Made by a program: the position numbers and the translations under genes. 47,091 bases of DNA from assembly GCF_003334255.1 (NCBI RefSeq), contig NZ_QOWU01000042.1. One strand, given 5' to 3'. The notes under the pieces were generated by a model. The model ran no database searches and had not been told where the DNA came from. It worked only from the letters and a program-made list of their open reading frames with translations. Origin of the DNA: Escherichia coli (GTDB lineage: Bacteria; Pseudomonadota; Gammaproteobacteria; Enterobacterales; Enterobacteriaceae). Shown piece by piece: positions 34,895 to 38,193 of the stretch; the stretch's first letter is position 1, and each line of letters begins with the position of its first letter.

Positions 34895-37750
34895 TTACAG
34901 CGCGGCGATAACAGCCTGCTGTTCAATCAGCTTCGCTTTCGCTTCTGCATAGCCTTCCAGCTTTTCACGCTCTTTCGCGATGACCGCTTCCGGTGCGCGG
35001 GCGACAAAGCCTTCATTCGCCAGCTTATTCTCGATGCGGCTGATTTCGCCTTCGATCTTCGCCACTTCTTTCGCCAGACGCGCCAGCTCATCTTCTTTGT
35101 TGATGAGGCCAGCCATCGGGATCAGCAGCTCTGCGCCGTCGATGATCTTCGTAACGGAAACCGGACCTTTGTTATCGGCAGGCAGCACGGTGATGCTTTC
35201 CAGACGCGCCAGGGTTTGCAGGAAGCCACGGTTTTCATTTACGCGACGTTCTGCATCCGCGCTGCAACCACGCAGCAGCAGCTCCAGCGGTTTGCCCGGT
35301 GCGATGTTCATTTCTGCACGGATGTTACGTACCGCAACGATCGCCTGCTTCAACCACTCTGTGTCGGCCAGTGCGGCTTCATCAACCTGAGATGCATCGT
35401 ACTGCGGGAACGGCTGCAGCATGATGGTGTCGGCAGTGATACCGCAAAGTACTTTCACACGCTGCCAGATGGTTTCGGTGATGAACGGAATGATCGGATG
35501 CGCGAGGCGCAGCAGACCTTCCAGCACGGTCACCAGCGTATGGCGAGTACCGCGCAGTTCGGCTTCGGTGCCACCGTTCATTACCGGCTTAGTCAGCTCC
35601 AGATACCAGTCACAGAACTGGTTCCAGGTGAACTCATACAGAATGCCTGCGGCGATATCGAAGCGGAAGCTGTCCAGCGCTTCGCGGTACGCTTTGATGG
35701 TCTGGTTGAACTCTGCCAGAATCCAGCGGTCCGCCAGCGACAGCGTCATTTCACCGCCGTTGAAGCCGCAATCCTGACCTTCTGTGTTCATCAGCACAAA
35801 GCGGCTGGCGTTCCACAGCTTGTTACAGAAGTTACGGTAACCTTCCAGACGCTTCATATCCCAGTTGATGTCACGACCAGTAGAAGCCAGCGCCGCCAGG
35901 GTGAAGCGCAGCGCATCAGTACCGTGCGGCTCAATGCCGTTCGGGAACTGCTTCTCGGTGCGCTTACGGATTTTGTCCGCCAGTTGCGGCTGCATCATAT
36001 TGCCGGTACGTTTTTCCAGCAGTTCTGGCAGCGAAATGCCGTCAACCATATCCAGCGGGTCGATAACGTTACCCTTGGATTTGGACATCTTCTGGCCTTC
36101 GTCATCACGAATCAGGCCGGTCATGTAAACGGTGTGGAACGGCACCTGCGGTTTGCCATTTTCATCTTTGATGAAGTGCATGGTCATCATGATCATGCGG
36201 GCAATCCAGAAGAAGATGATGTCGAAACCAGATACCATCACGCTGGTTGGGTGGAACTGACGCAGGGCGTCGGTGTTTTCCGGCCAGCCTAGGGTAGAGA
36301 AGGTCCACAGCGCAGAAGAGAACCAGGTGTCGAGAACGTCTTCGTCCTGACGCAGGGCAACGTCGGCACCGAGGTTATTTTCTTTACGCACTTCGTCTTC
36401 GTTGCGGCCAACATAAACGTTACCCGCTTCGTCGTACCATGCCGGGATTCGGTGACCCCACCACAGCTGACGAGAGATACACCAGTCCTGAATATCGCGC
36501 ATCCAGGAGAAGTACATGTTTTCGTACTGCTTCGGTACGAACTGAATGTCGCCATTCTCAACCGCTTCAACTGCCGGTTTCGCCAGGACATCGGCACGCA
36601 CGTACCACTGGTCGGTCAGCATCGGTTCGATAACTACGCCGCCACGGTCGCCGTAAGGAACGGTCAGGTCGTGCGGTTTAATTTCTTCCAGCAGGCCGAG
36701 TGCGTCAACCGCAGCAACGACTGCTTTACGTGCAGCAAAACGCTCGAGTTTCTGGAACTCTGCCGGGATTTCGCTGGAATAAACGTCAGATTCGTTACCT
36801 TTGGTATCGAACACCTGGGCGCTTTCACGGATATCGCCGTCAAAGGTCAGGATGTTGATCATCGGCAGCGCGTGACGTTTACCCACTTCATAGTCGTTAA
36901 AGTCGTGCGCCGGAGTGATTTTCACGCAGCCGGTGCCTTTTTCCATGTCGGCGTGTTCGTCGCCAACGATCGGAATACGACGGTTAACCAGCGGCAGAAT
37001 GACATATTTGCCAATCAGATCTTTGTAACGCGGATCTTCCGGGTTAACGGCTACGCCAGTATCGCCCAGCAGGGTTTCCGGACGGGTAGTCGCAACCACC
37101 AGATAATCTTTACCGTCTGCGGTTTTCGCGCCGTCAGCCAGCGGATAGCGGATGTGCCACATCGAACCTTTTGATTCGCGGTTTTCCACTTCCAGGTCAG
37201 AGATAGCGGTGCGCAGTTTCGGGTCCCAGTTTACCAGGCGTTTGCCACGGTAAATCAGGTCTTCTTTATACAGACGAACGAAAACTTCTTTCACCGCATT
37301 GGACAGGCCTTCGTCCATGGTGAAGCGTTCACGCTCCCAGTCGACGGAGTTGCCGAGACGGCGCATCTGACGGGTAATGGTGCCGCCGGACTCCGCTTTC
37401 CATTCCCAGATTTTGTCGATGAAAGCTTCGCGGCCGTAGTCGTGACGGGTTTTACCTTCTTCTGCGGCAATCTTGCGCTCAACGACCATCTGGGTAGCGA
37501 TCCCGGCGTGGTCAGTACCGACCTGCCACAGGGTGTTTTTGCCCTGCATGCGCTGATAGCGGATCATGGTATCCATGATGGTTTGCTGGAAGGCGTGACC
37601 CATATGCAAACTGCCGGTGACGTTCGGCGGCGGGATCATGATGCAGAAACTTTCCTGGCTTTCATCGCCATTAGGCTTAAAGTAGCCCTGCTTTTCCCAG
37701 TGCTCGTAAAGCGGCTGTTCGATATCTTGTGGGTTATATGTCTTTTCCAT
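34895..37750 (-). CDS. valS: valine--tRNA ligase
   Basis: 951-aa ORF with class I HIGH ([14 protein letters not shown]) and KMSKS motifs. Confidence 0.95.
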
Positions 37751-38193
37751 TATTTCCAGGTTGCCGTATTCAGGTTGAAACCAGCCACGCGGTAGGCTTT
37801 ATAGCGTTCGCGCGCCAGTTGTTTCAGAGAATCTTCATAAGGAACGAAGTCTACCACTTCTGTGAAAGCGGTGGCAAAATCTGCAAAGCTTGTTCGCAGA
37901 CTAATCAATATATCGCGCGGGCTGCTGCTGCGTTTTTGCGGCCAGGCGATCTCCACCGGCGCACCGCCGCGCGGTCCTTCTCCCGCTAAATTATGCGGAA
38001 CAAAGCTTTCTGCCGGACGCGCCCACAGGGCTTCATCCAGCCGGTAAGCCTGCTTTTCATCTTCACAGGCGATGAGCACGCGCTTACCGCTGCGCCAACG
38101 TTCTGCGGCAATTTCACACACCAGTTGCTCAACGGCGCTTAAGCCATCGACGGTGGTGTCATTGTCCAGAAGGTAGAACGTCGCGTTTTTCAT
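37750..38193 (-). CDS. holC: DNA polymerase III chi subunit
   Basis: 147-aa ORF ([46 protein letters not shown]...); its stop overlaps the valS start as TAATG. Confidence 0.9.

Follow-up and report, generated by a model that had tools for sequence, protein, structure and literature searches.

Organization of the holC-valS locus

In the window, i.e. the whole 47,091-nt stretch of Escherichia coli DNA analyzed here, to which all positions refer, holC and valS lie next to each other on the minus strand. holC (37750..38193) encodes the 147-amino acid chi subunit of DNA polymerase III, as supported by the list of open reading frames, the translation, the RefSeq annotation and the NCBIfam model NF004345 (338.7 bits over residues 1-147, with a cut-off of 281), while valS (34895..37750) encodes the 951-amino acid valine--tRNA ligase (ValRS), identified from the open reading frame list, its translation and model TIGR00422 (1304 bits, cut-off 612, alignment from residue 1). 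An intrinsic terminator, consisting of the hairpin AAGGCCG...CGGCCTT followed by a T-run, is found in the sequence downstream of valS (34844..34871, minus strand), where a transcript end has also been published. On the other side, holC is separated from pepA by a 353-nt spacer (38194..38546, minus strand) in which alignment and matches to naRNA4, located at 38301-38376 and 38397-38472, reveal three tandem REP-type units of around 96 nt; the alignment also shows that the equivalent spacer in K-12 has 159 nt and one such unit. This spacer is crossed by pepA-holC read-through transcripts (b4260|b4259; PMC6131387, Supplementary Data 3).

Read directly on the minus strand, the junction between both genes is ...ACG GCA ACC TGG AAA TAA TG GAA AAG ACA... 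The holC stop codon TAA (37752..37750) and the valS start codon ATG (37750..37748) form the pentamer TAATG (37748..37752), with base 37750 being common to the two codons. This is a -1 nt stop/start overlap between genes of the same strand, and both frames correspond to real genes with these exact ends, according to the full-length NCBIfam matches, the start codon and the N-terminus of ValRS. The RefSeq annotation shows an identical one-base overlap in E. coli ATCC 11775 and in MG1655 (holC 4483837..4484280; valS 4480982..4483837), and an 801-nt stretch spanning the junction has a match in all 5426 complete E. coli genomes. The gene identities, the strand, the shared A and the valS start codon had been proposed in a previous sequence-only reading, which placed the overlap at 37746..37754, a range that brackets TAA and ATG; all of them are borne out by the sequence, the open reading frame list, NCBIfam and RefSeq. 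That reading also considered that the arrangement was not a novelty, and in this it was right, since every E. coli genome has the overlap in its annotation and a public dataset includes the transcription start site (TSS) of valS. The TAATG motif alone is meaningless (it appears 99 times in the window, with 99.25 occurrences expected, and is not enriched); its weight comes from position and conservation.

If valS started at another codon there would be no real overlap, but we found no evidence supporting an alternative start, and the chance that this is the case is negligible. No ATG, GTG or TTG occurs in frame from the in-frame stop located 51 nt upstream to the valS ATG, and the first in-frame ATG downstream is found at codon 38, directly ahead of the catalytic HMGH region. 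The alignments to NCBIfam ValRS models begin at residue 1-2, and in six of the seven translated relatives in which a spacer separates holC and valS, the called ATG is the first codon of the N-terminus MEKTYNPQ or a close variant (MDKTYNPQ in Pantoea), the exception being Yersinia, where the ValRS gene call is 14 residues longer. The ATG at 37750 can thus be retained as the start of valS.

Phylogenetic distribution of the overlap

The survey of the junction was done by scanning one genome per species with HolC, which gave 80 Enterobacteriaceae loci with 88-100% identity; the 80 junctions counted correspond to the 79 readable loci of this survey plus the annotated locus of E. coli ATCC 11775. 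TAATG with a -1 overlap was present in 78 of the 80 species genomes. The two remaining ones, a Pluralibacter MAG and Intestinirhabdus alba, have GGAATAATGG at this point, with one A fewer, a variant that would extend holC 17 nt into valS. Among E. coli genomes, a query of 46 nt covering the junction was found in 5423 of 5426 (4242 exact matches and 1181 with one mismatch), and the single variant inspected was a synonymous change, TAT to TAC, in codon 5 of valS that leaves TAATG intact. Among the 78 distinct Enterobacteriaceae sequences compared, the junction constitutes the longest invariant run, with 15 nt (CCTGGAAATAATGGA, 37760..37746).

Outside the core Enterobacteriaceae, however, the holC-valS junction is a spacer of 2 to 25 nt and not an overlap. 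This is the case in three genera that belong to the family by NCBI taxonomy, namely Cronobacter (2 nt), Atlantibacter (5 nt) and Cedecea (6 nt), in representatives of four other families of Enterobacterales (Pantoea, 5 nt; Yersinia, 12 nt; Dickeya, 13 nt; Pragia, 16 nt), and in loci whose HolC shows 65, 55, 45 and 38% identity (13, 25, 4 and 7 nt, respectively). The sequence-only reading had described the overlap as a conserved arrangement, to be checked across Enterobacteriaceae; the description holds in that the overlap is common, as indicated by the 78 of 80 species, but not family-wide, given the spacers in Cronobacter, Cedecea and Atlantibacter, nor does it extend to Yersinia, Pantoea, Dickeya and Pragia. 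Only the pepA-holC-valS adjacency is widely conserved: pepA lies upstream of holC wherever the fetched locus reaches far enough, and the same gene order is maintained in Gammaproteobacteria down to 38% HolC identity.

The absence of TAATG in other families, in distant relatives and in three NCBI Enterobacteriaceae genera indicates that the overlap is a derived state of the core Enterobacteriaceae clade. The simplest reading is that it arose by a short deletion in the ancestor of this clade, which would have removed the last few codons of HolC together with the spacer of 2-16 nt still present in other Enterobacterales. The HolC tails are longer in taxa with a spacer (TATPPTN*, TATYTPPGTT*) than in the core clade (TATWK*).

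Several proteins that departed from the general pattern were discarded. HolC proteins of 185 amino acids (P0004, P0005, P0278 and P0286, the latter from Yokenella) could have been taken as natural losses of the stop codon, but they are N-terminal over-extensions through a REP element and still end in TATWK with TAATG. Apparent HolC-ValS fusions correspond to frameshifted assemblies (P0093 and P0007) or to a chimeric or permuted contig (P0017). As a separate observation, P0002, P0284 and P0285 are encoded on three metagenomic contigs in which the stop codon of holC may have been lost; the TWNSW of P0284 would fit GGAATTCATGG, and the EcoRI site therein would suggest an engineered construct.

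A promoter of valS within holC

Variation at third codon positions was measured along holC in the 78 distinct Enterobacteriaceae sequences. The third base was invariant in only 22 of the 142 degenerate codons, and ten of these 22 sites are consecutive, corresponding to codons 106-115 (37878..37849), a run that was not reached in any of 20000 shuffles (p<5e-5). Eight further invariant third positions are located in codons 135-147, immediately ahead of the valS ATG. The patch at codons 106-115 coincides with a promoter-like site detected by consensus scan on the minus strand (37848..37877), formed by the -35 hexamer TTGCCA (37877..37872), a separation of 18 nt and the sequence TGnTAGACT, i.e. 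an extended -10 TGn (37856..37854; TGG in the window) followed by the -10 hexamer TAGACT (37853..37848). The only variable base of TGnTAGACT in the 78 sequences is the 'n' of the extended -10.

These features are those of a sigma-70 promoter of the extended -10 type, for which two hexamers separated by 16-19 nt and a TGn element are expected: nine of the 12 hexamer positions match the consensus, in addition to TG. The invariant synonymous run and the maintenance of the site in other families also indicate purifying selection beyond the needs of the protein. The motif is kept in Yersinia, Dickeya, Pragia, Cronobacter, Cedecea and Atlantibacter, with TTGCTA as the -35 in Pantoea. Since it is present in taxa without the overlap, the valS promoter is older than the overlap. 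A second promoter-like site, CTGAAA-18-TATAAA, located around 47 nt upstream of the valS ATG and with 9-10 matches out of 12, was rejected: its -10 varies synonymously (TAT/TAC 35:43), and no TSS has been reported there.

Transcripts of holC and valS

Transcription starts of valS were reportedly mapped upstream of the ATG by Heck and Hatfield, back in 1988. From the position of the promoter, a TSS was predicted near 37841, and the one published for MG1655, whose sequence is identical to the window over the promoter and TSS stretch, corresponds to 37840 on the minus strand (MG1655 4483927; Yan et al. 2018, PMC6131387, Supplementary Data 1). This position, 8 nt beyond the -10, leaves a leader of 90 nt ahead of the ATG, although the base is a T, which is unusual, and the true start may be 1-2 nt off. 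A triphosphate 5' end 6-9 nt past the -10, as expected for a sigma-70 promoter, is thus available from published SMRT-Cappable-seq data in two conditions, with 256 reads starting there in M9 and 403 in rich medium, of which 47 and 105, respectively, end at the transcription termination site (TTS; PMC6131387). The latter, labelled as "known terminator" in that study, is 4480931, equivalent to 34844 in the window and to the end of the T-run of the terminator, and the sole gene fully covered by the reverse-strand primary transcript 4483927-4480931 is b4258 (valS).

In the same work, the pepA operon of RegulonDB was extended to pepA-holC (b4260|b4259), and each of the genes holC and valS is found in one transcriptional context only, which for holC is with pepA. 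The transcripts listed there include none that spans holC and valS in full, though SMRT-Cappable-seq under-samples very long RNAs and a pepA-holC-valS mRNA of around 5 kb could exceed its apparent abundance; read counts for the pepA start were not found in its tables. No terminator can separate holC from valS. Neither of the two genes nor their coordinates were found in the TSS supplements of four other studies, some of which contain no text: PMC4782308 (Cappable-seq), PMC10301672 (ROSE in-vitro transcription), PMC3415461 (Kim et al. 2012) and PMC4161252 (Conway 2014).

The translation initiation region of valS

The last codons of holC harbor the initiation region of valS (37746..37760, minus strand), with a weak Shine-Dalgarno (SD) sequence, GGA, at -7 to -5 in an A/U-rich, unpaired context. 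The third positions of holC codons 143-147 are invariant in the 78 sequences, despite the presence of four-fold degenerate Thr, Ala and Thr codons. Pairing of the valS SD with the anti-SD was estimated at -3.3 kcal/mol, which ranks 30 among the 36 coding sequences of the homologous annotated region (median -5.95), and the SD is equally weak or weaker in most of the relatives examined, with or without a spacer. A structure of the leader that would hide the valS start was considered and rejected: the stability of the 90-nt leader plus the early coding region is similar to that of shuffled controls (fold z = -0.35) and the centroid structure leaves the A/U-rich start unpaired, which together give no sign of a structure needing to be melted by an upstream ribosome. 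Both selection for coupling and selection for the start region would fit the invariance of the 15-nt junction.

Is translation of valS coupled to that of holC?

A stop/start overlap is by itself no proof of translational coupling, which the sequence-only reading had considered to be implied by the shared base. Part of that proposal stands, as coupling is possible on mRNAs that read through from upstream, but it does not apply to the listed valS mRNA that begins inside holC: without the start codon of holC, this transcript cannot be translated by way of holC, and initiation on it must take place de novo. A coupled pair would be expected to have a downstream gene devoid of an independent route of expression, and here a monocistronic valS mRNA with its own TSS (4483927) exists. 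The papers on translational coupling that were consulted make no mention of the holC-valS pair. The best explanation as a whole, which we consider probable, is that valS expression relies chiefly on a promoter of its own located within holC, and not on coupling to holC translation. The sigma-70 extended -10 promoter in codons 106-115 starts a monocistronic valS mRNA with a 90-nt leader, and ribosomes would load de novo on its weak-SD, A/U-rich and unstructured start, this being the main route according to the transcript map. On read-through pepA/holC mRNA, a ribosome terminating at the holC UAA would sit on the valS AUG and could reinitiate, which would give a minor, holC-linked contribution to ValRS. 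As to the amounts of protein made, a bioRxiv paper on growth limits provides numbers of complexes only as orders of magnitude.

The opposite possibility is that the ribosomes translating valS are for the most part those that have just finished holC at its UAA, with ValRS output tracking holC translation. Termination-reinitiation can couple native -1 pairs of E. coli, and hyfHI, ydbH-ynbE and menDH, which share this second most common configuration, lose downstream translation once the upstream stop is moved away (PMC10666635); the weak valS SD is what would be expected of a start that needs help, and the junction is invariant in 78 species. However, the efficiency of reinitiation falls steeply with distance, dropping to 40-60% or near zero at 12-25 nt (PMC10666635), and the weak-SD valS start works with spacers of that size in Yersinia, Dickeya, Pragia and others, while the two species with GGAATAATGG have the holC stop 17 nt inside valS. 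In addition, the only listed valS transcript begins downstream of the holC start codon, and HolC and ValRS do not belong to a common complex, whereas it is for subunits of one complex that tight overlaps are enriched (PMC10666635). Such an obligate dependence on holC is therefore highly improbable.

The overlap could also have resulted from a small deletion without consequences for expression and be retained just because changes would damage the end of HolC, its stop codon, the valS start or the initiation region. The fact that relatives function with spacers of 2-25 nt, the -17 variant of two genomes, the chance frequency of the TAATG pentamer and a promoter that predates the overlap all fit with this proposal, which largely coincides with the promoter-driven explanation favored above and differs only in denying reinitiation, a point on which sequence data do not separate them. 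In numerous genera of the core clade, the overlap has persisted and has not reverted to a spacer, which argues against this proposal, and we consider it unlikely that the overlap lacks any effect on expression. It is likewise doubtful, albeit conceivable, that the overlap has been selected in the core Enterobacteriaceae to add a small holC-linked (replication-linked) supply of ValRS on pepA-holC-valS read-through mRNAs, atop the promoter-driven supply. If this were true, the last third of holC would perform a triple duty, as HolC C-terminus, valS promoter, and valS leader and start, and the shortened HolC tail of the core clade could be explained.

Implications for the annotation of holC

With the promoter and leader of valS being inside holC, the last ~130 nt of this gene should be treated as valS regulatory DNA in operon predictions and in polarity arguments concerning holC knock-outs or CRISPRi. 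A holC deletion removing codons 106-147 is expected to cut expression of the essential gene valS. Beyond correct annotation, the importance of these results is small. They provide two modest additions, namely how far the overlap extends phylogenetically and the footprint at synonymous sites that the promoter and start region of valS leave in holC, both of which are expected kinds of result.

Comparison with known overlapping genes and internal promoters

Of 2987 unidirectional gene pairs in E. coli, 707 have a distance of -8 to +6, with -1 ranking second in frequency (PMC10666635). The homologous annotated region, which aligns to positions 2959..46206 of the window with 97-99% identity, contains 22 co-directional neighboring pairs, including two -1 overlaps, holC-valS and lptF-lptG, and one of -14. 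The latter of the two -1 pairs overlaps through TGATG (41423-41427), preceded by a strong SD, AAGGAG, in contrast with the weak SD of valS. The geometry of holC-valS, in which the stop codon ends with the A that opens the ATG, is also that of lptF-lptG and of hyfH-hyfI, ydbH-ynbE and menD-menH (Huber et al. 2019, 2023), and all these TAATG or TGATG pairs are co-directional and leave no room for an intervening terminator. On the other hand, hyfH-hyfI, ydbH-ynbE and menD-menH depend on the upstream ribosome, whereas valS has its own promoter inside holC. Tight overlaps are also overrepresented among genes whose products are subunits of the same complex, while holC and valS have unrelated functions.

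Promoters embedded in an upstream coding sequence are known from other genes, such as those of infC within thrS and the internal promoter of the trp operon in trpD. As in these cases, a sigma-70 promoter in the upstream open reading frame would make the output of valS independent of the upstream gene, and its presence imposes a nucleotide-level constraint on the host codons of holC, as embedded internal promoters do. Unlike the thrS/infC and trpD examples, holC and valS also overlap by one base, and the promoter, leader and start region of valS are all contained within the last third of holC.

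Apparent variants of the holC-valS junction

At the junction where the holC stop and the valS start share a base, departures from the usual arrangement were found in two sets of sequences. In the loci L031 (a Pluralibacter MAG) and L034 (Intestinirhabdus alba), GGAATAATGG stands in place of GGAAATAATGG at the junction, some 25 nt ahead of the valS start codon. As read from the nucleotides, this change would give a predicted HolC ending in ...TWNNGKDI* and a 17-nt overlap with valS; it may be genuine or may stem from faulty assembly. The second set consists of three metagenomic contigs (proteins P0002, P0284 and P0285) encoding Klebsiella-like HolC proteins 185 aa long; here other codons take the place of the stop and, according to the protein sequences, the holC reading frame runs 38 codons into valS. 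Across the replaced stop they read TWKKWKRH... and TWNSWKRH..., and TWNSW, judged from the protein, would fit GGAATTCATGG. Since GGAATTCATGG carries an EcoRI site, the HolC with TWNSW may derive from an engineered construct.

Another group of 185-aa HolC proteins is called in public annotations, in Yokenella regensburgei (locus L096, 1501..1614) and as P0004, P0005 and P0278. Their first 38 residues (MPGGGDALPGLQTA...) are a translated REP element of the pepA-holC spacer, and these calls were rejected as a real variant and assigned to over-extension of the start codon through that element.

The pepA-holC spacer and other features of the window

The spacer between pepA and holC (38194..38546) is 353 nt long, as in E. 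coli ATCC 11775, versus 159 nt in K-12 MG1655, the difference corresponding to two additional tandem copies of a REP-type unit of ~96 nt. Rfam naRNA4 matches are located in it at 38301-38376 and 38397-38472 on the plus strand, antisense to pepA-holC transcription. Also on this strand, a match to Ysr276 (Yersinia sRNA 276, antisense type; 39306..39500, 175 bits) lies antisense to the pepA coding region and may merely reflect conservation of the pepA sequence. Further Rfam matches (5151-5229, 11392-11469, 21647-21762 and 44588-44669) comprise two additional naRNA4/REP units, the Mg2+ riboswitch that precedes mgtA, and one tRNA, identified as tRNA-Leu by homologous annotation. The ends of the window are strain-variable (the first ~3 kb and the last ~0.9 kb), with positions 1..2958 and 46207..47091 lacking alignment to the ATCC 11775 region used for annotation.

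Within holC, a second promoter-like site, CTGAAA-18-TATAAA (37803..37832, minus strand), covers codons 123-132 and lies ~47 nt 5' of the valS start codon. Klebsiella and Enterobacter have TTGAAA instead of CTGAAA, and the -10 is variable at a synonymous position. No transcription start site is present at this site in the SMRT-Cappable-seq dataset (Yan et al., 2018; PMC6131387).

A one-base overlap, TGATG, also joins lptF and lptG (41423..41427, plus strand), whose products are subunits of one transporter. Ahead of lptG stands a strong Shine-Dalgarno sequence, AAGGAG, in contrast to valS, which has no strong one.
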